NCBI GenBank assembly: GCA_963662545.2
Contig: CAXXLL010000003.1
Location: 2,624,001-2,688,000, forward strand
DNA length: 64,000 nucleotides
Source of the DNA: Gammaproteobacteria bacterium
GTDB lineage: Bacteria > Pseudomonadota > Gammaproteobacteria > Ga0077536
Reading direction: 5' to 3'
Shown here piece by piece: positions 6,246 through 55,210 of the stretch (positions within the stretch are counted from its first letter, which is position 1; every line of letters starts with the position of its first letter). A model generated the notes under the pieces. That model saw only the letters and a program-made list of their open reading frames with translations, was not told the origin of the DNA and ran no database searches. A program made the position numbers and the translations under genes.

Positions 6246-6320
6246 CCGGTTAATTATTAGATAGATTAAATCTACTTACCTCCACTTGCATCAAGGGCGT
6301 TCGACGGGTATCTTGGCGCT

Positions 6321-6344
6321 GGGGTGACATAGTGGTGATGTAAA
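6321..6344. other. Putative integrase arm-type sites (attL side)
   Basis: GGGGTGACATAGTGGTGATGTAAA (tandem GGTGA) just upstream of the integrase; 19/24 identical to 55112-55135. Confidence 0.55.
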
Positions 6345-6377
6345 TAGACGGTGTCACCCCTCAACCAGGAGGACGCC

Positions 6378-7541
6378 ATGCTGAGCGAACTTAAGATCCG
6401 GAATGCCCGACCCGAGACTAAGACCCGCATCCTGTGGGACCAGCAGGTGAAGGGCTTAGGCGTCCGCATCACGCCGAAGGGCACCAAAGCCTATGTGCTC
6501 GACTATCGAATCAACGGCCGCCGTCATCGTGTGGTGCTGGCGCGAACGGCCGAGATATCCCTGGAGGAAGTTCGCAAGCGCGCCGGTGCCGAGCGGGTGC
6601 GGATCCGCGCCGGCGAGAGCGATCTGCTGACGCGGCGGCGCGAGGCGCGTGCGTCACCCACGGTGAACGAGGGATTGGAGCGGTTCTTCGCCGAATATGT
6701 GCCGACGCGGCTGGCAGCGGGCCGCATGGCTCAGGGCACGGTGGACGGCTATCGCCGACAAGCCGCCCGTCATCTGCAGCCTGCCCTCGGCCGGCAGCGG
6801 ATCGCCGACATCACGCGCCACGACATCGAGCGCATGGTGGCGCCGCTCGCGACGGCCGCCCCGGTACAGCGCAACCGCGTGCTGGCGTTCACGAGCCGGC
6901 TGTTCCGGCTGTTCGAAGATTGGGAGTTGCGCCCGCAGCACACGAACCCCACCCGGGGTATCGAGCGGGCGCGTGAGGAAGCACGCGACCGGGTGCTCAC
7001 GCCGTCGGAGATGACGGCACTCGGTGCGGCGCTGGCACGCGCGGAGAAGGACAAGCCCGCGGCCGTGGCGGCGATCCGGTTGGCGGCCCTGACGGGTCTG
7101 CGCATTGGCGAGGTGCTGGCGATGCGCTGGGAGCACTTAGACACTGAACACAAAGCCGTGATGCTGCCCCACACGAAGACTGGGCGGCGCGTGCACGGCC
7201 TGCCCGCGGCGGCGCTGGAACTGCTTGCGGACCTGCCGCGCATCAACGGCTATGTGTTCACCACTGGGCGCGACACGGCCATCTCGTATCAGACGGTCCA
7301 CGCCGCCTTCGCAACCCTGACGCGCGAGGCCGGCCTGCGGGACGTGTGCCTGCACGACCTGCGCCGCACGGTCATGACGAGTGCAGCGCGCGCTGGGGTC
7401 GGCACCCATGTGCTGCGCGACCTGCTCGGGCACAAGACCACGGCGATGGCGGACCGCTACATCCGTCATGCCGGCGCGGCGGTTCACGAGGCCCAGGAGC
7501 ACATCGGTGCGGCCATCGACGCGCAGTTGCGGGGCTTATGA
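6378..7541 (+). CDS. int: Tyrosine integrase with N-terminal arm-binding domain (P4-like/DUF4102)
   Basis: WDQQVKGLGVRITPKG N-terminus; catalytic residues TGLRIGE, HTKTG, HDLRR, LLGH, RY all intact; AGGAGG RBS. Confidence 0.93.
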   Translation: MLSELKIRNARPETKTRILWDQQVKGLGVRITPKGTKAYVLDYRINGRRHRVVLARTAEISLEEVRKRAGAERVRIRAGESDLLTRRREARASPTVNEGLERFFAEYVPTRLAAGRMAQGTVDGYRRQAARHLQPALGRQRIADITRHDIERMVAPLATAAPVQRNRVLAFTSRLFRLFEDWELRPQHTNPTRGIERAREEARDRVLTPSEMTALGAALARAEKDKPAAVAAIRLAALTGLRIGEVLAMRWEHLDTEHKAVMLPHTKTGRRVHGLPAAALELLADLPRINGYVFTTGRDTAISYQTVHAAFATLTREAGLRDVCLHDLRRTVMTSAARAGVGTHVLRDLLGHKTTAMADRYIRHAGAAVHEAQEHIGAAIDAQLRGL

Positions 7542-9360: not shown

Positions 9361-9559
9361 ATCGCTAGGCTGAACACGCGCGAGGCCGAGTACTACGCTC
9401 CACCACGGGCCCCCGAGGGCGATTCCATCGCAGGCCTTTCGACGGACAACGCCCGGCGCTGAGGCGGGGTGACCGCGTCCCGCCGTTGGGAGTCCCCTTT
9501 GCTATCACCCTGGCGGTGGACCTCCCTTCGATCCGTCTTGCAATACCCGAATCGCCCTA

Positions 9560-9800
9560 GGCCGTCTACGTGCGGGTCTGCCGAATTCTTCGATGAAAGC
9601 GGGCTTACCAGTCAAGTTGACAAAGCGCCGGAGACGCTGGGAACCGGATGGCCGGTGGCGGCGCCCCCGACGCTCAGCCGCACCCGGAAGTGGGTGTTCA
9701 ATTGCGCCCATTGCGTCCATTACGCCCTAAGCGCTCCAAACGGTGTCGATGATGGGCGCAATATGGACGCACGGTTGCAAGCCTTCCCGCGCCCGGCAAA
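9560..9800 (+). pseudogene. Relic 3' end of a satellite ATPase/helicase gene with iteron-like repeats
   Basis: Translation LTSQVDK...GWPVAAPPTLSR resembles LTGPVDK...GWPVNAQTLSR of the 11422-13128 protein; 9-bp repeats follow. Confidence 0.5.
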
Positions 9801-10183
9801 AAGCTGCTCGGCCAATGTAACCAGACGGCTCCGGGCGACCATCACGAGTCTCCGAGCAGATCAAGGGCCGCCTTCCAGCCGCGGTTGCACTCTGCGGTGA
9901 GTCCGCCTGACACACGGGCAGTGAGCAGGGCGTGCTGAAGACCCTCGATCCTCCGTTCAACCACCGGAACGTGTCCCATACACGGGGCGCACACCGGCGA
10001 GGAGCGTAACGCCCACTGCAAGAGACTCTATCGGTGCATCCGGAAACACCAATCCCGTCGGCTTTCCGACGCGCGACCGAGTCCCGCCATAGTGGGGCAC
10101 CATGCCGGAAAAAGTTGTGCCCAACAATTCATGTTGGATGTCTTCCATGCTGCGCGTTTCATCATGACAGCAGGAGAACCACC

Positions 10184-16100: not shown

Positions 16101-16813
16101 GGCATTGTCAGACTAACTGGGTCGGACCGGTAGAACCTGCAATCGAGGCCTTTTAAGCTGTAAGTTGACACCACTCAGCCAGGGCAGCGGCTCGAGCTTG
16201 TTTGAAAATAGCGCGGCGGTTGAGGTGGCGTTGGTGGTTGAAATGGTTATAGATCGAGGCATGGACGGCGGCGAATTTCTGTAGGGTCTTGATGTCTCTG
16301 AAGCGCGCCATTGCCCCTTCCCGCCTTCGAAAGGGCTGATGTGAGTTTTCTGCCCGGTTGTTCAGCCAACGCCCGGTCTCTTGGCAACCTTCGTTGCCGA
16401 GCACCTTCATCGCAGCACGGTATGACGGTAGCCTATCCGTGACGATCGAAGCCGGCCGGCCATAACGCTTCATCGTGCCCTTCAGGAACTCAAGCGCAGC
16501 CTTGCGGTCCCGCCGTTTCGTCACAAAACCCTCAAGGACTTCGCCTTCATGGTCAACGGCACGCCATAGGTAATGTGTCTTGCCGTTGATGCGGACAAAC
16601 ACTTCATCAAGGTGCCAGCGCCAGTTCGAATAGGATCCATGATGAACACGGCGTGTCCGGATCTCCGCGGCAAACAGCGAACCAAAGCGGTTCCACCAAT
16701 ACCGCACGGTCTCATAGCAGATCTCGATGCCGCGCTCGAACAGGAGATCTTCGACCTGTCTCAGCGACAAAGGGTATCGGACATACAACATCACCGCGAA
16801 GCGGAGTAACCGG

Positions 16814-18397
16814 TCAAACGGCGGCGTCTGGTAATTGATCTCGTGTTGCGGTAACGACGGCCAAGTTAGAACGCAGCGGTTGGGTAGCGAACAATGTCTT
16901 CCACACCCGAGGCGTGAGTTGTTCCACTGCGCTATCCGGATGGATCGCGATCCTCTGGAGTACATCAACCAGGTAGGTGTACGGATTAATGCCGTGTATT
17001 CGGCAAGTACAGATCAAACTTTGTATGATCCCAACGTGTTCAGCGCCCACCTCAGTCCAACAGAACATCCAATTCTTTCGGCCCATCGGAATGGGTCTCA
17101 GAGCGCGCTCTAAATGATTCGTGTCGATCGCGACGCTCGCATCCGATAAGTAAACACGTAACGCGCCCTCACGCTCGGCTGCATAGGCCAGCGCCTTCGT
17201 AAACGGCTGACTCGGTAATAAACCCATGCACTGGCGTTGCTCGTCAAGCCAGGCAAAAAATGCATCAACCGCAGGCAAGGCGTACCGGCTGCGGTAGGTC
17301 TGGGTCGCCGCTTCATCCATTGCCTGGTCACGGATGGTGGCCTCAACGGCATACAGTGCCGCGATCAAATCAAGTGCCTGCGCCGCACTTTGTGGCCTAT
17401 CGGATAATGCCCTTTCGAACTGACGACGCGTGTGCGCCCAGCATTGCGCATGCACGACTTCATCGCCGCGATCGGCGGCAAAACGCGCATAAGCCGCGGC
17501 GCCATCGGTTAGTAAGGTGCCTTTAAAGTCCACCAACGTTTTGTCGATGTGCGACCGCGCCTTGGTTCGCGCAAACGTGAACGCAATCTCATCCGCTTCG
17601 CCATAAATTGGCCAATACCACGCCGCGTTCATCTTGCCCTTGCCCGAGCGACCCGCCTTAATCGGCGTTTCATCCATCGCCAGCGTCTTCGATAACAAGA
17701 TATGCCGCAACTGCGCCAGATAAATCGGCTTCAACAGGTCACTTGCCTTCTGCACCCAGTGCGTCAGACTCGACCGCGCCACGGTAATGCCGTTCAGCCC
17801 CATTCGTTGATGTTGACGGTACAGCGGCAGGTGATAAGCGAACTTATCAACCAGCATCCCCGCAACCACACTCACATCCGCCAATGAGCCGGACCACAGA
17901 CCATCGGGCGCCGGGATCGTGAAGATCTGACCGTCGCTTTTGCGCTTCACTACCGGTTGGATGTACTTCAAGACCACATAGGCCGCCGGCCGTTGCGCTA
18001 AACGATAGGTGATCTTTTCACTGCTCGCTTCAAACGCATCCGCGACATCTTCAGGTACCGACAATTGGATGCATTCAATCGGCACCGAGTCATCGAAACG
18101 TAACCCTTGATCAGTCACACAATCATCGCCACGGCGCTTTCCTTTGCGCCGCTGATAAGTGATCGTTTCTTTCTCAACCGCCGCCGTCGATGACGACTCA
18201 TCCTCGAAGCCATTGAGTAACCGTTGATCGGGATTGGGATCAATCAGCCGCCGTTCAGACTTGCGACCGAACAGTTGGCGTTTGAACCAGTCGAGTTGTT
18301 GGGTGAGTGTGGCGACCTGCGTTTTGAGGGCTGTGTTTTCCGCTTGTAACACCGCCGCATCAAGTGATATTTCCGGCGTTGCATAACCCCCATTCAT
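16814..18397 (-). CDS. tnpC: IS66 transposase TnpC
   Basis: LFGRKSE, HLPLYRQ, MDET, LLTDG, CWAHTRR, NHLERALR, GRKNW. Confidence 0.93.
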   Translation of the reverse strand: MNGGYATPEISLDAAVLQAENTALKTQVATLTQQLDWFKRQLFGRKSERRLIDPNPDQRLLNGFEDESSSTAAVEKETITYQRRKGKRRGDDCVTDQGLRFDDSVPIECIQLSVPEDVADAFEASSEKITYRLAQRPAAYVVLKYIQPVVKRKSDGQIFTIPAPDGLWSGSLADVSVVAGMLVDKFAYHLPLYRQHQRMGLNGITVARSSLTHWVQKASDLLKPIYLAQLRHILLSKTLAMDETPIKAGRSGKGKMNAAWYWPIYGEADEIAFTFARTKARSHIDKTLVDFKGTLLTDGAAAYARFAADRGDEVVHAQCWAHTRRQFERALSDRPQSAAQALDLIAALYAVEATIRDQAMDEAATQTYRSRYALPAVDAFFAWLDEQRQCMGLLPSQPFTKALAYAAEREGALRVYLSDASVAIDTNHLERALRPIPMGRKNWMFCWTEVGAEHVGIIQSLICTCRIHGINPYTYLVDVLQRIAIHPDSAVEQLTPRVWKTLFATQPLRSNLAVVTATRDQLPDAAV

Positions 18398-18415
18398 GGG
18401 TACGTATTGTACCGT

Positions 18416-18784
18416 TTACACTGCTGACCGTCGATCGTTTTCCGGTAATCGAAACCGTTTTAATCGACGCACTGAGCGTAGATCGATCCCTTCAATAATG
18501 CACTGCCATTCGCTGCGTTGCAGCCGCTGTTTGACCTCGCTATTCCACCGAACCTGGAACTGACCGCGTTCGAGTTTCTTACTCCACAGACAATATCCGT
18601 CCGACTCAAAGTACAGCGCTTTTAATAACGTACGCCGGCGATTGACGAAAACGTACAGTGCCCCATCGAGGGGCTCCTCGTGTAACGCCTGCCGCACCAA
18701 CGCCGATAAACCATGGAACGATTGACGCATATCAGTCGGTGCCCGACATAACCATATACGCAAACCCGATGGGGGCGACCACAT
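18416..18784 (-). CDS. tnpB: IS66 accessory protein TnpB
   Basis: PTDMRQSFHGL, FVNRRR, KKLERG. Confidence 0.92.
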   Translation of the reverse strand: MWSPPSGLRIWLCRAPTDMRQSFHGLSALVRQALHEEPLDGALYVFVNRRRTLLKALYFESDGYCLWSKKLERGQFQVRWNSEVKQRLQRSEWQCIIEGIDLRSVRRLKRFRLPENDRRSAV

Positions 18785-19074
18785 CAGTGCCGTGACACAC
18801 GTAGCACGATGTCATCACCGAGCGCTAACTCGATATCCCATTGTGCATTGGTTAATGGTTGTAACGGGGCCAACTCGACGAAACGTGTTTCCGCCTTCCC
18901 TATCTGAGCGTCCCTCGCTGACCTCGACTTCCTTTTACTGAACGTCGAATATCCAATTCCTCGCTCAGCACAGAATGCGCGGATCGATGAACCGCTTTGT
19001 GCCTGCTCCGCTAATAGGCCACGCCACTCATCCGCACTACGTCGTTTGTTCCGAGGTTTTCCGTGATCATTCAT
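18784..19074 (-). CDS. tnpA: IS66 accessory protein TnpA (HTH)
   Basis: EWRGLLAEQAQSGSSIRAFC, FVEL; first gene of the IS66. Confidence 0.85.
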   Translation of the reverse strand: MNDHGKPRNKRRSADEWRGLLAEQAQSGSSIRAFCAERGIGYSTFSKRKSRSARDAQIGKAETRFVELAPLQPLTNAQWDIELALGDDIVLRVSRH

Positions 19075-19441
19075 TTACCAAGCTCCCGATTGACTGGGAA
19101 ACCTGGCAAACTAAACCATCTGCCCGAGACCGTGAATAACGGCCTGGATTGACCGGTTACGAAGCGGATCACTTCGGGCGAACTGTTGAAATAACGGAAA
19201 GGATTGTGCATCACCGGAGGCTACGAGGCCTTACTTTTCAGCTCAAGCCTATTTACTCTGACAATGCGATCATCCGTGCACCCGCCGCGATGAGCAGTCC
19301 TTCGACCGCCGCCCATTAAGGGAACGGCTCGTTGCGAAGCTCGCCCCATAAGCACACTCTTTCCTATTCTTCGGCCCTGTAGTCCTCGGTTCTGCCCTTC
19401 CCGTCGCCGATTACCGCCGGTCTCCAGGTGACGGCGCCGCG

Positions 19442-19651
19442 TTGACCGTTGCGGCGCCCTCGTCCATGTTCCCGACCACATTCCGAGTGTTCGGCTGGCT
19501 CGCGATCGCGGCGGCAGTCGCTCTGCCGTTCGTGGGCAGGGTGCGCATCAACGCGCTGCTTGGCTGGTTCGAAGGGAAGCCAACGTTCTTGATCCGGATC
19601 TGGTTAATCTTCGGCGTCGCGGTCGGCGCGTTCCTGGTTCACGCCGTCTGA
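19442..19651 (+). pseudogene. Membrane protein C-terminal fragment
   Basis: Two hydrophobic helices; no convincing start or RBS. Confidence 0.45.
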
Positions 19652-19662
19652 TCCAGATTGAA

Positions 19663-19800
19663 TCAAGGGCGGCACGGCGCCGGGCGCCAGTTCGAGCCGT
19701 CCGCCTCGCGCTTGAAGTTCGAGCTGATGATGAACGGCTCCGTCAGATAGGTCGGGTTGCGGAGTCCAAATGCATCCCAGTCATCGTGAAGTTCGGAGCA
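19663..19800 (-). pseudogene. C-terminal relic of a conserved hypothetical protein
   Basis: PTYLTEPFIISSNFKREADGSNWRPAPC reads like a natural C-terminus; no plausible 5' part. Confidence 0.35.
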
Positions 19801-19876
19801 TGCCTGACCACGCACGTGTTCCGTAGACAGAGCGTCATGCCGTCCCTTAGAAACAGATGACGGAACAGGCACTCAA

Positions 19877-20635
19877 CTAATGCGGCCGGTGCTTGGAATT
19901 ACTGTGTTGCGTTTCCGGCGCAAAGTCCAGCCGTATCCCCCGAGGTTTGGGTGGCGGGTCTTTTCTGGACTTGATCCAGTTTAAAAGAGGTTGCCATTGA
20001 GAGATGTCTTTGCGCGCACGGGACGACGCAAGCTCGTGGACGCCAAGCCCGCGATCGGTGGCGTGCAAGTAGTTCTGGGTGTCGCGCAAAACCGTCACCA
20101 ATTCGATGTCCAGGCTGTCCAGGAAGCTCATCAGTTTGCGGTACATGATGGTCTTTTCCCGGACTCTGTTTGCAATCACGCCGAGCTTGCCCGATGAACG
20201 GCTGACTTTGGCAACCAGCAGCAGGTCGGCCATCAGATGCGACGCGGCGTGAATGTCGGTGTCTGAGGTCAAAACCGGCACCAGAATCGCATCTGCCGAC
20301 TGGGTAAACTCGCACAGCCGCCGCACCCCAAGACCCGCCGGTGTGTCTACAATCAACTGCCTAACCTCTGCCGGTACACTGAGTTGCCAGCTACGGGTCT
20401 TGCGGGAATTGAAGTGGTAAGCGGCAATGCCGTGTATCGCCGGCCGCTCGGGTGGACGCTTGTCGAGCCAATGCATGCTCGACCCCTGAGGATCGCAATC
20501 CATCAGGGCCGGAGCGCCTTCCATCAGGGCAAAACAGCTTGCCAGATTGGTGCACAGGGTGGTCTTGCCCGAACCCCCTTTGGGGTTGAGCACGACAATC
20601 TTGAGCAGATCACGACGGCTGGGGATAGTGATCAT
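19877..20635 (-). CDS. ParA/Soj family ATPase (no parB nearby)
   Basis: NPKGGSGKTT, DCDPQGS, IVDTPAG; start uncertain (20635 or 20713). Confidence 0.88.
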   Translation of the reverse strand: MITIPSRRDLLKIVVLNPKGGSGKTTLCTNLASCFALMEGAPALMDCDPQGSSMHWLDKRPPERPAIHGIAAYHFNSRKTRSWQLSVPAEVRQLIVDTPAGLGVRRLCEFTQSADAILVPVLTSDTDIHAASHLMADLLLVAKVSRSSGKLGVIANRVREKTIMYRKLMSFLDSLDIELVTVLRDTQNYLHATDRGLGVHELASSRARKDISQWQPLLNWIKSRKDPPPKPRGIRLDFAPETQHSNSKHRPH

Positions 20636-20799
20636 TTGCCGGAAACCAGTGTATGTTTTGCCTGAGTGTTCCTGAGTATGCGCCTGGTAACTGGATTCAT
20701 CCACCCGGCTCAAGCCGATTTACTCTCTCATGTGAATAGTAAGGTCAACCCTTGACGCCAAGGACGACCGCTCGCGCCCGTGGCGCGCGGCTCCAATCT

Positions 20800-21195
20800 C
20801 ACCATGCCCCGATAACGCCATCGGCGTGTAGGTACAGCCGGACGACGGACACCGGCCGCCACCGCCAAGATTGCATCATCATCATTCCTTGCCCGCTTGC
20901 GTCGTCCGCCTTGAGAGTTCTTTGACAGCTTCGAGTTACCGGCCGGACCGGACGTCACGCGCGCTTCGGACATCGCCGAACGCCACAGTAGCGACGGGAC
21001 CGGTATTACCCGGCCATCGGCGATCGCACGTTGGAAATTTCGCACATTGTCGGCTCCATCCCTGAAGCCCATCCCGCGTACTTCGAGATCGGCCGCGGGT
21101 ATTCCGGCCTTGTCCAAAGCATCACGGAGTTCCGCTTCACGCCATCGATCCGCGACCACGACGGCCGGCCGGGCGAAGCGATCAAGCGCAGTGTC
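20800..21195 (-). pseudogene. Phage terminase large subunit, C-terminal fragment
   Basis: ADRWREAEL, RGMGFRDG, SLLWRSAMSEAR...PAGNSKLSK, R.NDD..ILAV; 5' part replaced by the repeat at 21192. Confidence 0.7.
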
Positions 21196-21372
21196 AACGG
21201 CGCCGCCGCCTCCCGCGCAGGCTCCAACAAGTGAGACTACGAGACCCATAGGTACTTAAGTCAAACGCCGACGGCGTTGGAGGATCCCCCCCCTGGTGCT
21301 TCATGCCAACGGGTCCCATCCGCGACTCTTTCCACATGCGCGGTAAACTCAATTTTCGCGCATGTGGAGCCC
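21192..21372 (+). repeat. ~180-bp non-coding direct repeat, copy 1
   Basis: Aligns with 53964-54140, e.g. CCAACAAGTGAGAC, GAGACCCATAGGTACTTAAG, CCCCCTGGTGCTTCA, GCGACTCTTTCCACATGCGCG. Confidence 0.9.
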
Positions 21373-21615
21373 GGTTAAGCTAGGAATGGCCGACGAAGAT
21401 AGCTGCCGCACGCCATCGTTGCTGCTTGCCCGGGGACAAGTTTTTCTGCGTACGGCGACGTTCGAAATTTTATAGCTCAGGCTAAGCCACGCCTCGACCG
21501 TAGCTGAAAGGGCCCGGGTTTGGCACCGATAATTAAGGGACTTATGCATTAAAATCAGCAAGCCGCCTGTTCAGGCTTCCTTCCGAACCAGCTTGTAACG
21601 ATTGGATGGTACTTT

Positions 21616-22098
21616 CTATGGCTGCTGAATCTTGCTCAAGATTTCATCACGTAATTCGACAGCCAAAACATCGAGCACGCCTTTAATTTCGATTCCGTTT
21701 TCGTATGCACACGCTTTGAAATCCGCGAGATGTTCGGCCGTTAGAACATTTTCCCCCACATAGTCGAAACAGGCCTCTTGAATTTCATAGGGTTGCTTGT
21801 TTTTGAGGGTTTCCATGAGTTCCGGGGCAAGTTTCTGTGCGAGTGCCGGGGCGTTAATTCGGATAGAAATGGATCTCCCTAAATCCGTTAACGTACGTGG
21901 GCTCGCGCCAGTGACAGGAACAGGAGGGAGGCGCCCCAAGATCTTTTTGATGTCTTCACGAATTTCCTTAATGAATTCTCCCAAGGAGGTTCTGTCGGAG
22001 TTCACCGCTCCGACCCATTTCCCAACCGCAAAAACGGCGCCGATAGCGGCAAGCGCCGAAATTACAATCACTGCTGGGTTGCTGACTCCAACCTCCAT
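21616..22098 (-). CDS. Hypothetical single-TM protein (IS1595 passenger)
   Basis: 160 aa; N-terminal TM helix, coiled segment, SPRTLTDLG motif. Confidence 0.75.
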   Translation of the reverse strand: MEVGVSNPAVIVISALAAIGAVFAVGKWVGAVNSDRTSLGEFIKEIREDIKKILGRLPPVPVTGASPRTLTDLGRSISIRINAPALAQKLAPELMETLKNKQPYEIQEACFDYVGENVLTAEHLADFKACAYENGIEIKGVLDVLAVELRDEILSKIQQP

Positions 22099-22211
22099 TA
22101 TGCAGCCCTCGTCGCGCTATCAACCGGCAAGTAGTCTACACGCTCTTTGAACAAAACTAATGGATTCAGTTGGTTGGTTATATTGTGTGTCAAAAAAATT
22201 TCAATACCACA

Positions 22212-22400
22212 TCATCTTGTGTATCTTCGACGCACCAATTTCCAGCGCCGTTCCCGTTCTTCTTTCGTAGGCTCTCGATTCTCCCTTGGCGGCGGGTCCA
22301 TACGCGCCCCTAGAACTTGGCGGATAGCCTCGGTAAACTCGTCCTCCATAATAGGATCGCGGTCCTTCGGGAGTAGTCTGGGCTTGCGCTTCATGTTCAT
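22212..22400 (-). CDS. Small basic hypothetical protein (IS1595 passenger)
   Basis: 62 aa; ATGA overlap with the protease stop. Confidence 0.6.
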   Translation of the reverse strand: MNMKRKPRLLPKDRDPIMEDEFTEAIRQVLGARMDPPPRENREPTKEERERRWKLVRRRYTR

Positions 22401-22858
22401 GGCGTACTGATAGTCACTTCGCCCGTAACCCCGTTGTACATCATTTGGAAACGCCTGAGAAATGTTCGTCCTATTAGCACAAGGTGTTGTTGGCCCCCGC
22501 CAATTAGATCGACACCAGCGAAAGAACCGTATAGCGTAAAACTCAGCGCAGGAATGTATATTTGGGCCGCGTACATATTAGCTAGATAATTCCCACTGAT
22601 CCCACCGAAATTTGAGCGATCGACGACAGGAAGCCCCAACCGCGTGGCAAGGCTCGCATCGATACAACTAATTGTCGCGCCAGTATCTATAACGGCATGA
22701 ACTTGCTGAATTAACGTTGTTGGAAGTGCAGCAGGTTTATTTGGATCGTAATTTGGGTCAAACCCAACGTCCACCAATATAGTAGGGCCGTAACCAACAA
22801 GAGAATCTTGTGCTTGGTGCCCGTTTGTGCTGACGAAGCCACAGCTAACACTAGGCAT
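22397..22858 (-). CDS. Retropepsin-like (clan AA) aspartyl protease
   Basis: AVIDTGATISCID...LGL and LIGRTFL motifs; start MPSVSC overlaps the upstream stop by 8 nt. Confidence 0.88.
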   Translation of the reverse strand: MPSVSCGFVSTNGHQAQDSLVGYGPTILVDVGFDPNYDPNKPAALPTTLIQQVHAVIDTGATISCIDASLATRLGLPVVDRSNFGGISGNYLANMYAAQIYIPALSFTLYGSFAGVDLIGGGQQHLVLIGRTFLRRFQMMYNGVTGEVTISTP

Positions 22859-23093
22859 GTATCTGTTGGTACAGTACTGAAGCTGGCAAGGATTGATTTT
22901 TGACGCCAACCTCTCGTATGAGATAAGGCCCCTTACCAAATTTCTGAGTTGCTTCGTGTGCTGCATCGTTGAACGTATCGAACGCCCCAATCATCTTCTC
23001 ATCATGGAGCAGCACCCATTTACCCATGTAATTGGTTTCAAAGTTTTCGCGCATCTTTTCAAACGCTGAAATATCTTTATCTAATGCGTCCAT
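22851..23093 (-). CDS. DUF5678-like small protein
   Basis: AGGAGAGG RBS; Y.GKWVLLHDEKMIGAFDTF..A...A...FG..PYLIREVG. Confidence 0.75.
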   Translation of the reverse strand: MDALDKDISAFEKMRENFETNYMGKWVLLHDEKMIGAFDTFNDAAHEATQKFGKGPYLIREVGVKNQSLPASVLYQQIHA

Positions 23094-23210
23094 ATCCCTC
23101 TCCTTTTGCCGCGCCGAGTCTAACTTTTTGTTTTTAGCAAGTGTATGACAACGAATTGACGTCATCTACTTCAAGTTTTACAAGGTATTAACTCCTATCG
23201 ATTAAAAGCG

Positions 23211-24155
23211 TCATGCAATCAAGGCTTTATAACTAAGCTTCCTTCCTCTGATTCCCTTTGCTAATGCGGCCATCCGATCAATCGTATCCACTTCACAGTT
23301 CCCCTCGTTCAGTCGGAAAGCCGCTTCATTGACGTAGCGGCCTAGATGCTTGTTCGATACGTGATGCCACGTGCCGATCACCGAGCGCTTGAAGACGCTC
23401 CATACACTCTCGATGCCGTTCGTGTGAATTTCGCCACGGACATACTCACCAGCGCTGTGCTTGACTGATTCGTGCTGGTATTGGTTTAGGATGGTCGGCA
23501 GGGCCGTATAAGCGCCGGCATCGTCCGTGTAGACGGTGGCCCCTTGCTCGGTATGGGCTTCGACGAAATTGATGAAGGTGCGCGCGTCAGTGGCGCTCAC
23601 GGGCTCGGCTGCAACCTTACCCCCGCGTTCCCGCGCCCCGATGATGGGTGTTTTGCCTGCGGTGCCGCGCCCAGCTTTGCGTTTCTTCGTTTCGTGCTTG
23701 TTGCGCTCTTTGCCGCCTACGTAGGTCTCGTCCACCTCTACGACATTCGCCAACTTGAAGTCCCCGCTCTTGCTCGCTTCGCGAACGCGGTGAAGCATAT
23801 GCCAAGCCGTGCGGTATTGCACACCGAGTTCCTTGCTAAGCTGCATGGCGCTGATCCCTTTGCGGCCCGTCAGGATCGAGTAGATAGCGTAAATCCAATG
23901 CTGAAGCGGTAGGGGGCTTGAATGCAGGCAGGTCCCTGTGGTTACCGTGAAATGCTTGCGACAAGACTTGCACCAGTAGTGATTCGGCTTGCTGTCTGAT
24001 GGCGGCCTGATCTCATCAACGCTACCGCAATGTGGGCAAACTGGCTGGCTGTTCCAAAGAACCTGCTCAAACCATTCGCGGCAGGCTGCGTCATCGGGGA
24101 AGCGCCGGTAAAGCTGGGGGACGCTGATAGTCTTGGCGATGCGTTTTTTCTTCAC
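23211..24155 (-). CDS. IS1595 family transposase
   Basis: CPHC/CKSC Zn ribbon, HTH (ISAMQLSKELGV), VEVDETY, VYTDD, HTNGIESVW, YVNEAAFRLN. Confidence 0.95.
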   Translation of the reverse strand: MKKKRIAKTISVPQLYRRFPDDAACREWFEQVLWNSQPVCPHCGSVDEIRPPSDSKPNHYWCKSCRKHFTVTTGTCLHSSPLPLQHWIYAIYSILTGRKGISAMQLSKELGVQYRTAWHMLHRVREASKSGDFKLANVVEVDETYVGGKERNKHETKKRKAGRGTAGKTPIIGARERGGKVAAEPVSATDARTFINFVEAHTEQGATVYTDDAGAYTALPTILNQYQHESVKHSAGEYVRGEIHTNGIESVWSVFKRSVIGTWHHVSNKHLGRYVNEAAFRLNEGNCEVDTIDRMAALAKGIRGRKLSYKALIA

Positions 24156-24990
24156 GGAGGTCTCCTATATCCTGCTTATTATGGTATAGGAGTTTCCTCG
24201 AATAATCAACTACTTTATTTCCCTGCTGATTTTAATGCATAAGTCCCATAATTAACCTAGACCCGTTCTAAGGGATCACTCCACTCGCGATCGAGCTTCA
24301 TCCAACGGTCGGTTTGCCTTTTGCAAGCACCTCAGGCGCACGACCTGCTTGCACCAGCTCAAGCCTCTGCCCGAAAAATCCCGGTGGGTAAGTTCTTCTG
24401 GTCTTTGGCATCGTCGACGTCTCTCATCGTCAAGGTTTAGATGCCCATGACAGCGAGGCAAGACCACATAGTGTTGCCTCTGCACACTACCATGAAAGCG
24501 CAATAAAATATTGCAACGTCCCATATCATCCACGACTGACTTGAATTGAACATCGAAGTTGAGCACGTCGTGGAAAAGCTAGTGAGTAGATCCAGGGCGG
24601 GCATTGTTAGGTGTGCACGCACGATTTTCGTGCTCTCTGTCGCACAGGGAACAGGGTTCGGTCATGTCTCGATGGTTGACGTATAAAAGGGGCCGTGCTG
24701 GGTGCGAGGCCGTTCCACCAGTGGTGTGTTCGCACCCGTTTGTTAGCGTGGCCCGGATTGCGTTCGGCTTGTCCTCGTTGATGGCACGCTCACGCGTGAC
24801 CTCGTATGAAAGAGTGATCCCCAATCGCAATCTCACCCAGCACAACCTCGTGTTGATATTGGGAGAAATGGAGATGGTACGCAAGACCTCAGACAGTCGT
24901 TTGTGTCTGACGTCAGCGCCTTTGGGACAAATTGAGGTAATTGCATAACGGGGGATTTCTGGCTCATCGTAGTAACCGAAGGGAACGAAG

Positions 24991-25365
24991 ATGAGACAGA
25001 AATCAATGAGCAAGAACGACCCGGCGGAGAGAACGGTTCGGGATATTCGCCGCAAGACACGCAAGCAGTATACGGCTGAGGAGAAGATCCGGATCGTGGT
25101 GTCGGGCCTGCGCGGCGAGGAGAGCATCGCCGCCTTGTGCCGCCGCGAGGGCATCGCCGAGGGTCTGTATTACAGCGGGTCGAAAGAGTTTTTGGAAGCG
25201 GGCAAGAAGCGGCTCGCCGGCGACACCGGGCGCCAAGCGACCTCGGGTGAGGTTAAAGGCCTGCGCCAGGAGATGCGCGACTTGAAGGAGTGGGTCGCCG
25301 AACTTTCGCTGGAGAACCGTCTTCTCAAAAAAAACATGATCGGGCATGGGGGCGGCGAGCAATGA
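24991..25365 (+). CDS. IS3 OrfA
   Basis: RKQYTAEEKIRIV...SIAALCRREGI HTH followed by a coiled coil. Confidence 0.88.
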   Translation: MRQKSMSKNDPAERTVRDIRRKTRKQYTAEEKIRIVVSGLRGEESIAALCRREGIAEGLYYSGSKEFLEAGKKRLAGDTGRQATSGEVKGLRQEMRDLKEWVAELSLENRLLKKNMIGHGGGEQ

Positions 25366-26342
25366 GGTATCCCGCATCCGAGAAGCTGGAGATCATCCGC
25401 CGGGTCGAGCAGTCCCACCTGGGCGTTGGGTCCACTTTGGACAAGCTGGGCATTCCGAAGACCACCTTTTATCGCTGCTACGATCGCTTTCTGGCCTTTG
25501 GCGACGCCGGTCTTGAGGATCGCAACAGCAGCCCAGGCCGGGTGTGGAACCGTATCCCGGATGATGTCCGGGGGCAGATCATCGATCTTGCCCTGGAGGA
25601 GACGCAACTGTCGCCCCGGGAACGGGCCGTCAGGTTTACGGACACCAGGGGCTACTTTGTCTCGGAAGCCTCGGTTGACCGGCTTCTCAAGGCCCACGAC
25701 CTGATCACCAGCCCCGCTTTCGTGGTCATCAAGGCAGCCGATGAGTTCCGCAACAAGACCACGGCGCCGAACCCGCTGTGGCAGACCGGCTTCACCTATC
25801 TCAAGGTCATCGGCTGGGGCTGGTTTTACCTGTCGAGCATCCTGGACGACTATTCCCGCACCATCATTGCGTGGAAGCTCTGCACCAACATGACGGCGGA
25901 CGATGTGACGGCAACACTGAAGTTGGCGCTAGAAGCCTCAGGCTGCAATCGCGCCAATGTCGTCCACAAGCCGAGGCTGCTCAGCGACAACGGCTCGTCC
26001 TATATCTCCAGCGATGTGGCTGAATGGCTCGAGGACCACGGTATGGATCACGTTCGGGGCGCACCGTATCACCCGCAAACCCAAAGCAAGATCGAGCGCT
26101 GGCATCAAACGCTGAAGAACCGGATCCTGCTTGAAAATTATTATCTACCCGGCGATCTCGAAAACCAGATCAGCGCCTTCGTCGATCACTACAACAACCA
26201 ACGCTACCACCAGAGCATCGGCAACGTAACTCCAGCTGACGCCTACTTTGGACGCCACACCGCCATCATCGAAAAGAGAAAAAAGATCAAAAAACTGACC
26301 ACCCAAAACCGCCGCTTGAACCATCAAAGCCAAGCGGCTTAA
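25362..26342 (+). CDS. IS3 OrfB DDE domain, first catalytic Asp apparently mutated
   Basis: WQTGFTY (expected WQTDFTY), LSDNG, KIERWH. Confidence 0.85.
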   Translation: MRYPASEKLEIIRRVEQSHLGVGSTLDKLGIPKTTFYRCYDRFLAFGDAGLEDRNSSPGRVWNRIPDDVRGQIIDLALEETQLSPRERAVRFTDTRGYFVSEASVDRLLKAHDLITSPAFVVIKAADEFRNKTTAPNPLWQTGFTYLKVIGWGWFYLSSILDDYSRTIIAWKLCTNMTADDVTATLKLALEASGCNRANVVHKPRLLSDNGSSYISSDVAEWLEDHGMDHVRGAPYHPQTQSKIERWHQTLKNRILLENYYLPGDLENQISAFVDHYNNQRYHQSIGNVTPADAYFGRHTAIIEKRKKIKKLTTQNRRLNHQSQAA

Positions 26343-26415
26343 CATCAAACAAAGATGAGCCAGATCCTCCCTTATGAAACACGCTCAACAGTCCCATTTG
26401 TTTTGATGACGGACA

Positions 26416-26456
26416 GCAATTACCTCAATTTGTCCCAAAGGCGCTGACGTCAGACA
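26416..26456 (-). repeat. Inverted 41-bp copy of the IS3 left end, abutting the IRR
   Basis: Exact reverse complement of 24904-24944. Confidence 0.93.
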
Positions 26457-28622: not shown

Positions 28623-29190
28623 TCATTTTGCCGACTTCAACCATTGCGCAAGCGGTTTGTCCGGATCGGCAATCTGATCGATCGAGCCGTACCAATAGCG
28701 CTGCCAGCCGACCTCCGGCAGGCCGGTGAACAGCATCAGGTTCAGCGGATAGTCCTCGCTGTCGGTGCAACGACGAAAATCGTCCCGGAACAAAAACACG
28801 GGCTTGCCCCAGGCGATCGCCATACCCAACTCGACCATCACGCCCTCGTCCGGGGGGCAACCGTTGACCACCGCGAACAGTCCATCGGCATCCCGCACAT
28901 CGCGAAGGTCGGCCTGGCCGATCTGGTAGGCCCAACCAGGGGTTGTCTGATCGATCTGATTGTTGCGTGCGAAGGGCTCCCAAACCTCAGCGCCCACGGC
29001 TTCCAGAGCCGCCACGAGCGCCGCCAACGGCCCCTCGCTTTGCTGTAAGGAGAAGCCATACGGGTTCGCTAGATACAGGGTCTTCTTAGCCGTCGCGGTC
29101 GCGTAGCGTCCTGCTTCGCCAACCGCTCCGTCGGCGCCCACCCCACTCGAACTCACCAACGCAAGCGCGAGGCCTAAGACAACGACTTTG
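28623..29190 (-). CDS. Nucleoside 2'-deoxyribosyltransferase family protein
   Basis: LYLANPYGFS, WEPF, AD..DV..AD, DEGVMVELG.A.A, YPLNLML; start uncertain. Confidence 0.85.
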
Positions 29191-29664
29191 ACGCCACAGA
29201 CGACGCTGAAAATTTCACTTTTTTCGGTAATCAAAATACGGAATTTCCTAGCTTTTATAGTGATGCTTTGAGAGCAGCTATTTCGTCTCTGAGGCAAGCT
29301 AATCCATCGTTTTCACTCATGAGAACGCTCCCTAAGGAAACCGCTCTCCTACCGGGGGTAGCAAGAGGGCGGTTGGTCTCCGGGCCTGAGAAGCAAAGGG
29401 GAGTGTAGCTATCCCTTACCCCTGGCAGAAACTGCCCCTCTCGCAAGACGAACGAAGCCTATCCCTATGCTGCACTTTCGATCATGCTGGAGTATACGGC
29501 CAAGGACAAGAGGTATATCCACTCTATGAGTTCGCCATTGAGATAGTGGGGGCCGAGGCGCTTGAGATCGCTCTTGACGAGTTTGCCGGCCGCATCTGGC
29601 ACTTAGACTCATCCACCATTTGCGCTTGGGCAACGCTTCGCGCATCTTCCCTCCTCCCCATCAG

Positions 29665-30443
29665 TCAGTTGGACCCCTTCTGAGTGAGAATAGCGCTCAG
29701 AAAATTATGCATTAGATCTGATTTGGGATACCTCGAAAGCACATCTTCGAAACGATTGTAGAATTCCACATCTAAAGGTGAAGATGAGAACCAGTGTCTT
29801 TCTACGGAGAAATCGAGTAGCTCGAAATAGTGTTTGTACTCCGCGTAGGTAAGCTTGTTCACCCAAGCCGGTTTGCCTGACCTTCTACCGATATGCCGAT
29901 AGAACGCTTCAAACACATCATCGGTAAATAGAAGATGCGGCCAAGGGAAATACACTTCCCGATACCGATGGGATGCTTGCGGACCTCGATATAAATTCGC
30001 ATGCAAGTAGAACTTGCCGTTTTCCTTCAATAAGTGTTTGACGCCTTGCAGAGCAGAGAACGGATGTTTGATGTGTTCCCATACGGCCCACGAATAGATC
30101 CGGTCGAACTCTCCTAACTCACTACAGCCGTCTTTACTGATATCCAAGATCCGTAATTCGACGCCAGCTTGATCTAAGTACGTGTTCCACGCTTCACGGT
30201 CCTTGATATCCACGCCAACAACACTGCAATCGTAGTCTTTGGCCAAGACATAACAGACCTCGCCGCGACCACAACCAACTTCGAGCACCTGCTTTCCACG
30301 AATATCGATGAGTTCGTCAAGCCTCCCCGCGCGTTTCTCGGCTGCGGCCAACATGGCTGGTGCATGGAGCTCGCGGGGTTTAGAAACAATTGGCTTAGAT
30401 TCGTATTCCTTGTTTAATTCAAGAAACAAGTTCAAATCGAAAT
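29665..30443 (-). pseudogene. Class I SAM-dependent methyltransferase, 5'-truncated by IS3
   Basis: VLEVGCGRG, GVDI, FDRIYSWAVWEH, LKENG; visibly lower GC; frame runs into the IS3 end. Confidence 0.8.
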
Positions 30444-30497
30444 TGGAGTTGACCCGTTTTCGTGGATACCTGACCCTTTTAGAAGGAGGATTCCACG

Positions 30498-30806
30498 ATG
30501 CCCAAAACACGAACTGCCTATCCACCGGCCTTCCGGCAACAGATGATCGAACTGGTACGGGCGGGCCGCAGCCCGGAAGACCTTGCACGCGAGTTTGAGC
30601 CGACCGCACAGACCATTCGCAACTGGGTCGCGCCGGCCGACCGTGATGAAGGTCGCCGCAACGACGGTCTGACCACCGTCGAACGCGAAGAACTGCGCCG
30701 TCTGCGTCGGGAGAATCGGCGGCTACGTGAGGAACGGGAGATCCTTTCAAAAGCCACGGCCTGGTTCGCTCGGGAGACCGATTCGAGGAAATCTTCGAGT
30801 TCATGA
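30498..30806 (+). CDS. IS3 OrfA
   Basis: YPPAFRQQMIELV...LAREF...TIRNWV; EELRRLRREN zipper; AAAAG slip site near 30749. Confidence 0.9.
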   Translation: MPKTRTAYPPAFRQQMIELVRAGRSPEDLAREFEPTAQTIRNWVAPADRDEGRRNDGLTTVEREELRRLRRENRRLREEREILSKATAWFARETDSRKSSSS

Positions 30807-31651
30807 AAGTGAATCAGGCCACTTACCGGATCGCGCCGATGTGCCGGCTACTCGGTGTCTCCCCGAGTGGGTACTACGCGTATTGGACACGTGAACCCTC
30901 GGCGCGGTCGAAGCGTGACGCGCAACTCAAGGCACGTATCCAGGCCATCCACAGCTGGAGTCGAGGCACCTATGGGGCACCGCGTATTCACGCCGAACTC
31001 GCTGATGAGGGGACGCATGTGGGTCGCAAGCGTGTCGCCAGGCTGCTGCGCGAGTTAGGTTTGGCCGGGGTGAGTCGACGCAAAAGGACGCGCACGACAC
31101 GCCGCGATCACGATGCTCGCCCGGCGCCGGATCTGGTCGAGCGTCACTTTGTGGCTTCGCGGCCGGACGCACTGTGGGTTGCTGACGTGACCTACGTGCC
31201 GACGTGGGCGGGGTTCGTGTATCTGGCGGTTGTCGTTGATGCGTTCAGTCGGCGCGTTGTGGGCGGGTCGATGGCGACGCATCTGCGCACTGAACTCGTG
31301 CTCGAGGCGCTCAACATGGCACTGTGGCAGCGACGTCCAGCGTCGGTGATTCACCACTCCGACCAGGGCTGTCAGTACACCTCGTTCGCCTTTGGCAAAC
31401 GCTGCCGGCTGATGGGTGTACGACCGTCGATGGGATCGGTCGGCGATTGCTACGATAACGCGATGGCCGAGAGCTTCTTCGCGACGCTCGAATGTGAGCT
31501 GATCGACCGCCACAGTTTCAAGACGCAGGCCGAAGCGAAGATGGCGATTTTCGAGTTCATCGAAGGCTGGTACAACCCGCACCGTCGTCACTCATCCCTC
31601 GGTCAGCAATCACCGCTAAACTATGAAAATAATTATCAACAGGCTGCTTGA
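30803..31651 (+). CDS. IS3 OrfB DDE transposase
   Basis: TYGAPRI, WVADVTY, HHSDQG.QY, DNAMAESFF, YN..R.HSSLG. Confidence 0.92.
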   Translation: MKVNQATYRIAPMCRLLGVSPSGYYAYWTREPSARSKRDAQLKARIQAIHSWSRGTYGAPRIHAELADEGTHVGRKRVARLLRELGLAGVSRRKRTRTTRRDHDARPAPDLVERHFVASRPDALWVADVTYVPTWAGFVYLAVVVDAFSRRVVGGSMATHLRTELVLEALNMALWQRRPASVIHHSDQGCQYTSFAFGKRCRLMGVRPSMGSVGDCYDNAMAESFFATLECELIDRHSFKTQAEAKMAIFEFIEGWYNPHRRHSSLGQQSPLNYENNYQQAA

Positions 31652-33510: not shown

Positions 33511-33606
33511 GAACGGCGGTGACAAATTAGTCCACGGAAGCGGCGGGATTTCCCAGCCGCGGGCGGAGTAAAACTCTGCCACCTGTAGCCTTCGATCTTT
33601 TTTGAG

Positions 33607-51306: not shown

Positions 51307-51405
51307 TGAGAACGGCGGTGACAAATTAGTCCACGGAAGCGGCGGGATTTCCCAGCCGCGGGCGGAGTAAAACTCTGCCACCTGTAGCCTTCGATCTTTT
51401 TTGAG

Positions 51406-53687: not shown

Positions 53688-53963
53688 CCACCGAACTCAA
53701 GGTTGACCCGGTGGGTCCACAGGAACCTCCCACGCTGCTTCGCTCCGCGTAACGCAAGCGCTACACGAAGCAGCGCGGGTCCCTCCTATGGACTACCGGG
53801 ACAACCCCCCAACACTGCGTACCGCATAACGTTAAGTGGACTAGTTTTGCTCCGCCCGGGTGGACTAATTTTGCTCCGCCGTTGACATCCGCCCGTCAAT
53901 ACAAGGTCGTCATGCCCGTACGCTAACCAGCCGGAGGCTTGGGCAGTACGGAAGCGTCAGGGT

Positions 53964-54140
53964 GTCAAAACCTCGGCGCCTCGCGCGCAGGCCCCAACAA
54001 GTGAGACACCGAGACCCATAGGTACTTAAGCCAAACGCCGACGTGGTTGGAGGACCCCCCTGGTGCTTCAAGCCAAAGGGTCCCATCGGCGACTCTTTCC
54101 ACATGCGCGATAAACTTAATTATCGCGTATCGGGAACCTG
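53964..54140 (+). repeat. ~180-bp non-coding direct repeat, copy 2
   Basis: Homologous to 21192-21372; contains ATGCGCGATAA-ACTTAA-TTATCGCGTAT at 54103-54130. Confidence 0.9.
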
Positions 54141-54619
54141 GTTCAGCCATGATGTGAGCGTCCGGGACGTGAGCCGGGGCCCGCGTCGACCGAGACCGAC
54201 AGGGGCCAGCAATACTGCGCACAGGGTGTCATCGAAGGGTCATGAGATTCTGCGCGCCAGGGTCGCCCGGGCCATCGCATGGGGCTATCGCCCCGCGGCC
54301 ACCGGCACGCCTTGCTCGCGGATCACGCGCTATCGCCGTCCGCTGCGAGGGCGGCTACTCGTCAAGGCGGCGCGGGAATTGCGGGGCCGTCTAGCTATGA
54401 CGGCTTTCAGCGAAGGGGTGTTGTCCGGCGTGTGCATCGACGCGCCGTTGAGTGAGCATGCACGACGGGGCGAGTATCCTGGTGGCTGGGCAGCTTCACG
54501 ACCTAAAGCATGCTCACGCATTGACCGGCTCCACTGGGGGGAGGCGGTTTGGCTGTCAATTTCAGGGCCTAAAACATTGTTAGAAGAGCTGCAACGTGGA
54601 GCCAAAACGGCGCTCACAG

Positions 54620-54680
54620 CCCAAACGGCGCCGATGAAAGACGCAATGGGCGCAATGGGCGCAATTTTGCAGGCCTTTTC
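54620..54680 (+). repeat. Iteron-like 9-bp tandem repeats homologous to 9736-9790
   Basis: AAGACGCAA-TGGGCGCAA-TGGGCGCAA preceded by CCAAACGGCGCCGATGA. Confidence 0.6.
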
Positions 54681-55111
54681 AGGGAGACAAGATAAAAGGC
54701 CTGTCAGCCGCGGTGAAGCATCATGCCCGGGCGTTGTGCCCCACGCCGCTCACGCTCTCAACCAGGATCGCATCGCAAGACTTGGCTCATCACGCCGGAC
54801 CTGCCCGCTGCCCAGCGCTCCTGGCGCGTCGGCACCCGTTGCGCAAACGCAGGCTTCAAACCCTGCCCGCACCGGCGGCAACGGTCATGCCGTTCGACAT
54901 CGCGCAGCGTCCATAGTACCGACCTCGTTGGGCACCTCAATTGCATCATCGCCCAGGGCCCGAGCGCACTGCGTCCGGGCCGCGGTACAATCCACCGCGT
55001 GCAGAAACTGCTGTCTCGCCGGGTTCCGCACCGAACGGGGTCGTCCCGATCTCGGCCCGTTGAGACATGACGCTGTGTTACCTGCGCCGTCCCCCTCAGA
55101 ATTTCGGCGAC

Positions 55112-55135
55112 GGGGTGATACATTGGTGATACAAA
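55112..55135. other. Putative integrase arm-type sites (attR side)
   Basis: GGGGTGATACATTGGTGATACAAA followed by an AT-rich tract; matches 6321-6344. Confidence 0.55.
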
Positions 55136-55210
55136 ATTTCTAGATTAACGAAGTTCGTCTCACAACTGATTGAATAATAATTTTTTTTGATACGAAATCG
55201 AATTATAAAT

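Follow-up and report, generated by a model that had tools for sequence, protein, structure and literature searches.

A repeated non-coding DNA module with exchanged flanks, a possible att- or res-like recombination site, in uncultured Gammaproteobacteria

A 64,000-nt stretch of gammaproteobacterial DNA, referred to here as the window, contains two direct copies of a module of about 175 nt that we call R. Six DNA copies of R were collected from three genomes. A few related uncultured bacteria share a longer non-coding repeat of 1.2 kb, and R is the portion of it that is best preserved. We tentatively read R as an att- or res-like site-specific recombination module belonging to a small mobile or island-borne DNA family in one uncultured clade of Gammaproteobacteria, a reading to which we give somewhat less than even confidence. 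It is suggested because R forms a common block between exchanged flanks, because a reciprocal hybrid pair of copies surrounds an insert and because the copies share an invariant short core. Most likely, R is an added member of the known class of integrative-element recombination sites. The finding is of more interest than a chance repeat and is less exotic than first proposed.

The repeat, its longer unit and its genomic setting

Four repeats were detected in the window by self-BLASTN. One of them pairs 21204-21380 with 53974-54147, both on the + strand (87.0% identity over 177 columns, E 1.5e-55), so that the direct repeat described in the original prediction, estimated by eye at about 80% identity, is real and better conserved than was thought. 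Copy 1 of R (21192..21384, + strand) is a stand-alone module with a terminase fragment, A', as its left flank and unrelated DNA, B, from 21385 as its right flank. Copy 2 (53975..54150, + strand) lies within a longer unit. The motif TGTCAA precedes both copies and, as had been claimed, both are outside any IS; an IS21-family copy has its right end (53887) 87 nt before the start of copy 2. Every reading frame of R is interrupted by stops in one or both copies and the substitutions show no 3-base periodicity, and a check for a coding gene therefore left R as non-coding DNA. The description of an element of about 180 bp was right in this respect and wrong in treating the element as self-contained, since copy 2 runs on into about 1 kb that is conserved in the related loci L001 to L003.

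These relatives were found in a single scan of species-representative genomes using an 18-mer common to both R copies; diverged copies would be missed because the scan needed the exact 18-mer. The scan returned four loci. L001 and L002 belong to one gammaproteobacterial MAG (contigs CBDDBH010000006.1/31.1) and L003 to another (CBDCJB010000004.1). The fourth locus, L004, was rejected as a chance match. The genome search for homologues and the tabulation of their flanks thus placed R in two related gammaproteobacterial MAGs. By BLASTN, R did not match plasmids, and the whole unit matched neither plasmids nor any of 50,697 phage records.

The full unit, of about 1.24 kb, occupies 53903..55139 on the + strand. 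It consists of T-left (53903-53974), R and about 1 kb that we call "rest"; T-left is defined as the 72-75 conserved nt to the left of R in copy 2, L001 and L002a. The unit is 90% identical to L001 1889-3080 over 1248 columns and homologous to L003 985-2057 on the reverse strand. L002 contains a short copy at 1879-2122 (L002a) and a long copy at 3098-4018 (L002b), the latter, truncated where the locus ends, corresponding to R and "rest" without T-left. At its right end, the unit has the tandem GGTGATACA-TT-GGTGATACA (55114..55133, + strand), after which three homologues stop, diverging into unrelated AT-rich flanks. A weak likeness to this end is present upstream of an integrase gene at 6310..6345 (+ strand; nhmmer E 0.036), and the local alignment of 6310-6345 with the L001 end gave a shuffle P of 0.007. 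In L001, a tRNA-Thr is present, not at R but 43 nt away from the opposite end of the unit.

The unit at 53903-55139 is non-coding. It contains an unusually long ORF, 54043-55143 (366 aa; P ~0.0025 in 2000 Markov simulations), which was rejected as a gene. Its GC1/2/3 values are flat at 0.64/0.62/0.62, compared with 0.37-0.51 for GC2 and 0.68-0.83 for GC3 in a set of 12 real genes from the window, and its frame is interrupted in both L001 and L003. Substitutions in the unit are spread over codon positions as 26/22/21, with periodicity absent on either strand. A Pfam scan of 29 stop-to-stop pieces from three copies (29 of the 45 listed pieces of at least 45 aa, mostly the longer ones) gave none with E < 0.02. 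In a set of 5.8 billion proteins, two near-length and nine shorter matches to the unit's reading frame were found, and all 11 are fragments representing the same reading frames of the same element. A large structured RNA spanning the unit was also rejected, with z < -2 in two of 15 scanned segments on the + strand, one of the two being the segment with the hairpin of R, and in none of 15 on the - strand. The features of an IS or MITE were looked for as well: the unit is without inverted ends, without a convincing target duplication and without a Pfam match in any frame. Around L001 there is only a 12-nt repeat (11/12, P 0.047), and the window shows nothing of the kind.

The window has a G+C content of 59% and includes a genomic island that starts with a P4-type integrase gene, followed by DUF932 and DUF7146 proteins, a ParA-type ATPase and many ISs. 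The integrase gene (6378..7541, + strand; ORF listed as 6351-7541) has an ATG with a ribosome-binding site at 6378, encodes Phage_integrase and Arm-DNA-bind_3 domains and is the sole tyrosine recombinase gene in the window. The ISs of the window comprise an IS6, an IS66, an IS1595, two rve-type elements and two IS21 copies (33508-36087 and 51307-53887) that are 99.96% identical. The 32.8-kb block between the two R copies includes a 15-kb segment bracketed by IS21, along with many further ISs, and gives no impression of a single coherent element. By Pfam, the block (21385-53974) encodes transposases only, with no integrase and no relaxase. The original prediction had noted that no recombinase is adjacent, and this holds: there is none beside either R copy, and the nearest integrase gene is 13.7 kb from copy 1. 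Neither the 32.8-kb block nor L001-L003 contain an integrase gene. A tRNA-Thr remnant was looked for at the ends of the window's island and none was found.

A serious rival to recombination at R is that R is a passive dispersed repeat, the best-preserved piece of a decaying 1.24-kb repeat with no dedicated recombinase or function. The variety of flanks would then be due to ISs, to deletions stimulated by palindromes, and to gene conversion or RecA-dependent exchange among the copies. We regard this as possible, though on balance rather unlikely. The neutral look of the substitutions across the unit fits it, and so does the density of ISs in the region (IS6, IS66, IS1595, IS21 twice and rve-type). 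The arrangement of the copies, described below, bears on it from both sides.

Another possible explanation starts from the gene to the left of copy 1. A C-terminal remnant of a terminase large-subunit gene (20803..21198, - strand, about 135 codons) abuts R. Residues 18-149 of the ORF at 20728-21249 (- strand) correspond to residues 363-496 of a 497-aa protein with 78% identity, whose precomputed Pfam domain is PF03354. Proteins of about 500 aa match this ORF over their last 134 residues, with identities of up to 78%, and several of them have precomputed PF03354, PF20441 or PF03237 assignments, which we take to be terminase large-subunit families. In PHROGs, too, the fragment is named terminase large subunit (E 4e-5). 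Similarity to the terminase proteins ends near 21198, at the start of R, in keeping with the proposal that copy 1 begins at the cut in the terminase gene. That R itself is a piece of terminase was rejected: a TBLASTN extension to 21246 has only about three identities in 17 residues, and full-length terminases do not match the units (best E 0.35).

R could accordingly be pictured as a cos/pac packaging region common to phage and satellites, adjoining the terminase gene and having element-specific flanks. Copy 1 and L003 do abut the terminase remnant, and a shared cos site could take the form of a conserved, roughly 175-nt block whose flanks vary. The 15-kb island to the left of copy 1 carries the integrase and a DUF7146 protein; DUF7146 proteins, which we take to be toprim/primase-like, would suit a satellite. 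We nevertheless consider a packaging function very unlikely. The terminase is a 135-codon stump lacking its 5' two-thirds, and R adjoins the break and not the start of the gene. No small terminase subunit and no portal gene were found in the window, most copies (copy 2, L001 and L002) are without a nearby phage gene, and the search of phage records mentioned above was empty.

Exchanged flanks and mosaic copies

Five flank arrangements were seen among the six R copies, drawn from three left flanks, unrelated to one another, and three equally unrelated right flanks. Window copy 2 and L001 have the order T-left, R, rest. Copy 1 has A', R, B, and L003 has A', R, rest. The two L002 copies face each other across an insert, L002a as T-left, R, insert and L002b as insert, R, rest. 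Flank pairs of different kinds showed no likeness beyond that of shuffled sequences in six of six comparisons (P 0.11-0.98). The shared sequence begins at R itself in copy 1 and L003, which have a common terminase junction, and in L002b, which has an independent junction. To the right, copy 1 and L002a end 7-20 nt past the palindrome near the end of R, and the other copies continue into the "rest" of about 1 kb. Partial copies always hold the 3' part of R up to its hairpin.

Although the unit measures 1240 nt, the partial copies have two left ends, of independent origin, that lie no more than about 20 nt apart, and the same is true of two independent right ends; this clustering argues against a passively decaying repeat. 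One further combination, T-left, R, B, was predicted; it was not seen in the exact-18-mer scan, which yielded one locus from the L003 contig, and that locus stops exactly at the equivalent of 21383, where this junction would begin. No tRNA, tmRNA or gene 3' end provides a target at R, where Rfam and ARAGORN had no match, and ARAGORN found no tRNA or tmRNA in the whole window.

The sole long block that is invariant in all six R copies is the 17-mer AGACCCATAGGTACTTA (A5 columns 39-55), present on the + strand at 21242..21258 in copy 1 and at 54012..54028 in copy 2. Apart from the 17-mer, the copies are 72-90% identical overall. In a seventh copy, P0008, known from a spurious ORF only, the 17-mer is retained at the amino-acid level. 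The invariance of this block among copies that have otherwise diverged speaks against a passive repeat and makes the 17-mer a candidate crossover core.

The L002 locus shows one pattern of exchange. Its two R copies lie around a 975-bp insert that carries no mobility gene. In A5 columns 1-57, L002a has the same base as window copy 2 at 54 of 56 positions, and in columns 78-165 at only 56 of 86. L002b shows the opposite, with 22 of 39 in columns 1-40 and 80 of 86 in columns 78-165 (Fisher P 3.8e-6 for L002a and 3.5e-6 for L002b). The two copies are therefore reciprocal mosaics that switch between A5 columns 40 and 78, an interval bracketing the 17-mer. Reciprocal hybrid sites around inserted DNA, switching at a common core, are thus seen in L002a and L002b. 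Outside the 17-mer the partners are only about 56-67% identical, and DNA of such identity is a poor substrate for ordinary homologous exchange. Ordinary homologous exchange is probably not the source of the L002 mosaics for this reason, which again weakens the case for a passive repeat.

The comparison of the window with L003 gave a second sign of exchange. In the part of the terminase/ParA flank directly beside R (20935-21212, 278 nt) there are no differences, and farther out, in 19473-20733 (1261 nt), there are six substitutions and one 10-nt indel. Within R (21213-21374), 20 differences occur in 162 nt. This break in identity at the left edge of R is significant (Fisher P 9.6e-10). Next to this shared flank, the two genomes therefore have different family members of R.

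The gene order around R is also circularly permuted between the window and L003. The window has the order IS6, IS66, A', R1, B, and L003 has B, IS6 fragment, A', R, rest. In L003, the left end of the IS6 is joined to the equivalent of window position 24275, and the locus has an empty site for the IS1595 element. L003 was considered as the empty site of a 32.8-kb insertion and rejected, as its flank past "rest" differs from that of the window.

The two exchange points are not the same. The switch lies at the left edge of R, before 21213, in the window and L003, and near the 17-mer in L002; one fixed crossover does not explain both. The identity break between the window and L003 could be explained by gene conversion or homologous recombination, and it falls at a homology edge, as gene conversion would give. 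Together with the IS6-made junctions in L003, the differing exchange points and the edge position are what a passive repeat would lead one to expect.

Reading R as a recombination module, we propose that a recombinase acts on R, which could be the P4-type integrase encoded at 6378-7541 or an enzyme encoded elsewhere; the integrase is a candidate by inference only. Strand exchange would take place at or near the 17-mer AGACCCATAGGTACTTA and not at the palindrome. Other conserved blocks of R, namely the GAGACCCAT/GGGTCCCAT repeat, a C-run and the terminal hairpin-forming palindrome, may be accessory binding or architectural sites. Copy 1, flanked by island DNA on both sides, would be attP-like or else an internal junction of accreted elements, and copy 2, situated within an intact 1.24-kb unit, would be attB-like. 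Recombination of copy 1 with copy 2, direct repeats sharing the 17-mer, would be expected to delete or circularise the intervening 32.8 kb.

The assessment of an att-type site also included the setting and the sample. The island setting, with its integrase and many ISs, was counted in its support; the lack of an adjacent recombinase, the presence of only six copies and the small insert of only 975 bp were counted against it.

An extended version of the proposal is that the whole unit is a protein-free mobile element, with R as an att module at one end and the two GGTGATACA sequences as integrase arm-type repeats at the other. Such an element might be moved in trans by island integrases and might serve as a landing pad for further elements, building composite islands. 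We consider this version unlikely.

If R works as a recombination site, it would mark where islands in this gammaproteobacterial clade dock, accrete and swap segments, and metagenomes could be searched for such junctions simply, with the 17-mer core as a probe. R would, besides, exemplify an att-like site located inside a multi-copy non-coding unit and not in a tRNA or gene end. If R is a mere decaying repeat, the finding is an ordinary one. A crossover of the Xer type, discussed in the next section, is set aside either way.

The terminal palindrome

The palindromes of R were found where the original prediction had placed them, at 21336..21363 in copy 1 and 54103..54130 in copy 2 (both + strand). 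Each has 11-nt arms and a 6-nt spacer, with two arm mismatches in copy 1 and one in copy 2. The hairpin has 14 pairs in copy 1, where the stem extends to 21332-21367, and 11 pairs in copy 2. Palindromes of this 11-6-11 layout with at most two mismatches occur 20 times in the window, compared with 12.25 on average when the sequence was simulated 20 times as a first-order Markov chain. The geometry is thus near chance, and the retention of the hairpin in homologues is non-random.

From this layout, R had been taken for a Xer/dif-type site of the cer/psi kind. In this reading, which could also cover pdif modules and IMEX elements, host XerCD would act on the palindrome and cross over within its 6-bp spacer. 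R does have the Xer plan of two 11-bp arms with a centre of 6-8 bp, with the reservation that palindromes like these are near chance level in the window. The 6-nt spacing is retained in five of the six copies, copy 2 has the ATAA-N6-TTAT pattern, and the 28-mer has a low G+C content (0.36-0.46, compared with 0.59 for the window). The partial copies stop 7-20 nt past the palindrome, which would also suit a crossover there. Modules bounded by Xer sites and lacking a nearby recombinase are described for Acinetobacter plasmids in parts of PMC6449649 and PMC5790767.

The bases of the arms point away from Xer. Carnoy and Roten (PMC2731167, Table 1) list dif sites from 18 gammaproteobacteria, with TTATGTTAAAT as the XerD arm in 17 and TTATGCGAAAT in one; according to their text, conservation in dif is highest in the XerD arm, the inner arm bases and the A at position 25. 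The right arm of R is TTATCGCGTAT or TTTTCGCGCAT, which has six of 11 bases in common with TTATGTTAAAT and a G at position 25 in place of the conserved A. ATAA and TTAT occur together in only two of the six copies. The conserved part of the palindrome is instead its GC-rich outer portion (TGCGCG/CGCGYA), and the inner arm bases are the most variable, including those of P0006 and P0008, two copies known as translated fragments only. A dif-derived pattern had no match in the window at up to three mismatches, and the window is without a xer gene, whereas a Xer site would go with xerC and xerD in the genome and, for cer/psi, with PepA/ArgR/ArcA accessory sites. The inferred switch points are outside the palindrome, some 75-130 nt before its left end.

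An Xer crossover in the palindrome is hence highly improbable, and we do not retain that part of the original prediction. The original prediction had named a loss of the arms or of the 6-bp spacing in homologues as its refutation. This came out half and half: five of the six copies keep the spacing, but the arm bases that define Xer sites are not conserved. The more general idea, a recombination site accompanied by about 140 bp of conserved DNA, is supported by the exchanged flanks, the L002 mosaic and the identity break.

The hairpin also raises the possibility of a small structured RNA, in which R, alone or with T-left (about 250 nt), is transcribed from the + strand and ends in the hairpin. 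An RNA gene of this kind might be an integration target, with elements carrying a spare copy of its 3' part. Islands that restore the 3' end of their target gene offer an analogy for the partial copies of R, which always include its 3' portion as far as the hairpin. The stem has four transition differences, each of which preserves pairing, as G-U (or G-T), on the + strand and not on the other, a pattern with a chance of about 1 in 16, and in the divergent L002a the outer stem is kept through changes on both sides. For the scanned segment that covers the hairpin, the z-score is -3.9 on the + strand, compared with -0.2 for the - strand.

Covariation has weak controls. Helix 7 is 94% paired and has two pairs changed on both sides, but 21-28 of 500 shuffles reach the observed values, which lies within the false-positive range of the tool. 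R as a whole reaches z-scores of no more than -0.8 to -1.9. A search for promoter-like sites was negative, and so was one for a terminator-like site at or after the hairpin. R had no Rfam match at the gathering level in a search of the whole window, and permissive searches (E up to 10) of copy 1, copy 2 with the unit and the three loci returned chance-level matches and the L001 tRNA only. We therefore judge a structured RNA unlikely, although less so than an Xer site. The hairpin pattern fits a folded single strand, RNA or DNA, and equally a symmetric protein-binding site.

Comparison with known systems

Composite sites of Tn3-family and plasmid resolvases, called res, are about 120-170 bp long, with a crossover subsite near one end and accessory palindromic subsites beside it, and recombination between direct repeats of res leads to deletion. 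R would be alike in the length and layout of its putative composite site and in forming direct repeats. It differs in having no adjacent resolvase gene.

Some prophages carry a spare 3' end of their target gene, for example phage 21 and e14 in icd. R resembles these in that the mobile partner carries a diverged copy, of more than 100 nt, of one side of the target, so that a long imperfect repeat is present at both junctions. Unlike the prophage case, the repeat has no coding content and does not restore a gene.

With Xer sites (dif, cer/psi, pdif modules and IMEX), as presented in parts of PMC2731167, PMC6449649 and PMC5790767, R shares the 11-6-11 layout, the ATAA-N6-TTAT of copy 2 and a low G+C content. 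It is also similar in having about 140 bp of conserved DNA on one side and in that a nearby recombinase gene is not needed. R is dissimilar in its unconserved XerD arm, variable inner arms, multiple copies and switch points outside the palindrome.

The att sites of islands with tyrosine integrases are the remaining comparison. As outlined in part of PMC5704250, these sites have a common block between unrelated flanks in B-O-B', P-O-P' and P-O-B' combinations, and the five arrangements seen among the R copies would be of a similar kind. Further similarities are the reciprocal hybrid pair around an insert, direct repeats bounding a block without its own integrase, and a decayed, IS-rich island setting. 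R is unlike these sites in that its block is about 175 nt long and 72-90% identical, as opposed to a short identical core; that it has no tRNA, tmRNA or gene 3' end and no adjacent integrase; that the "target" is itself a multi-copy, non-coding unit of 1.24 kb; and that one inferred exchange point lies off the 17-mer. Streptococcal islands include CIMEs, decayed elements that lack an integrase and have att sites at both ends, and new elements can accrete into these sites (PMC5704250). Of the behaviours described, this comes closest to that of R.

Candidate boundaries of the island

The island begins with a tyrosine recombinase gene, the integrase (6378-7541, forward strand). The 36 nt just upstream of its start (6310-6345) weakly resemble the right end (55101-55137) of the unit, a non-coding repeat of about 1.24 kb, and tandem GGTGAYAYA repeats form part of this likeness. 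The nhmmer E value for the match to the unit right end was 0.036, and local alignment of 6310-6345 with the unit end in L001, a locus of a gammaproteobacterial MAG, gave a shuffle P of 0.007. Tentatively, the two segments could be imperfect direct repeats that bound an island of about 49 kb, or they could be arm-type sites of the integrase.

The 3' end of a tRNA gene is the usual side for island integration. In L001, a tRNA-Thr(CGT) gene lies on the opposite strand at 3120-3195, with its 3' end 43 nt from the right end of the unit. No tRNA-Thr remnant was found in the window.

A motif shared with the unit, and possible cargo

The 143-codon ORF at 9469-9900 had no family match, and its GC content is flat across the three codon positions (GC1/2/3 of 0.58/0.64/0.67). 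The ORF and the middle part of the unit both contain a CGCAATGGGCGCAAT-type motif (nhmmer E 5.5e-5), which in the ORF occurs on both strands at 9695-9786. This ORF probably represents non-coding DNA in which a binding motif recurs.

The stretch at 28623-33510 is low in G+C (51-56%) and contains a nucleoside 2-deoxyribosyltransferase-like gene, a SAM methyltransferase, an IS3-type fragment, and a subtilase; it could represent defence-type island cargo. At L002, two copies of the conserved module of the unit surround a 975-bp insert. Within this insert, at 2482-2900, a small ORF resembling a lipoprotein gene is accompanied by a second, degenerate version of itself; the insert contains no mobility gene.

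Insertion sequences

An IS1595-family element (21530-24254) with 31-bp inverted ends carries three passenger ORFs, one aspartyl-protease-like and two unknown. The 8-bp duplication ATAATTAA lies on both sides of the element, and L003, a locus of another gammaproteobacterial MAG, has the empty site, uninterrupted. Adjoining IS6-family and IS66-family elements occupy 16101-19472. In L003 (3571-3875), the left end of IS6 is fused to window position 24275, and a second junction joins IS6 position 16374 to 19473. These junctions are those expected of IS6-type intramolecular transposition and deletion. A rve-type IS with perfect 41-bp inverted ends (24904-26456) apparently inserted into the reverse-strand ORF 24579-25154.

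An IS21-family element (istA/istB) occurs twice in direct orientation, at 33508-36087 and 51307-53887, and its two copies are 99.96% identical. When all four flanks were compared, no matching target duplication was found. The 15.2 kb between the copies holds genes of housekeeping appearance: a sensor, GGDEF/EAL, a DAO-GCV_T oxidase, DUF1329, hydantoinase A/B, and a PucR regulator. Together, the pair and its interior have a layout like that of a composite transposon.
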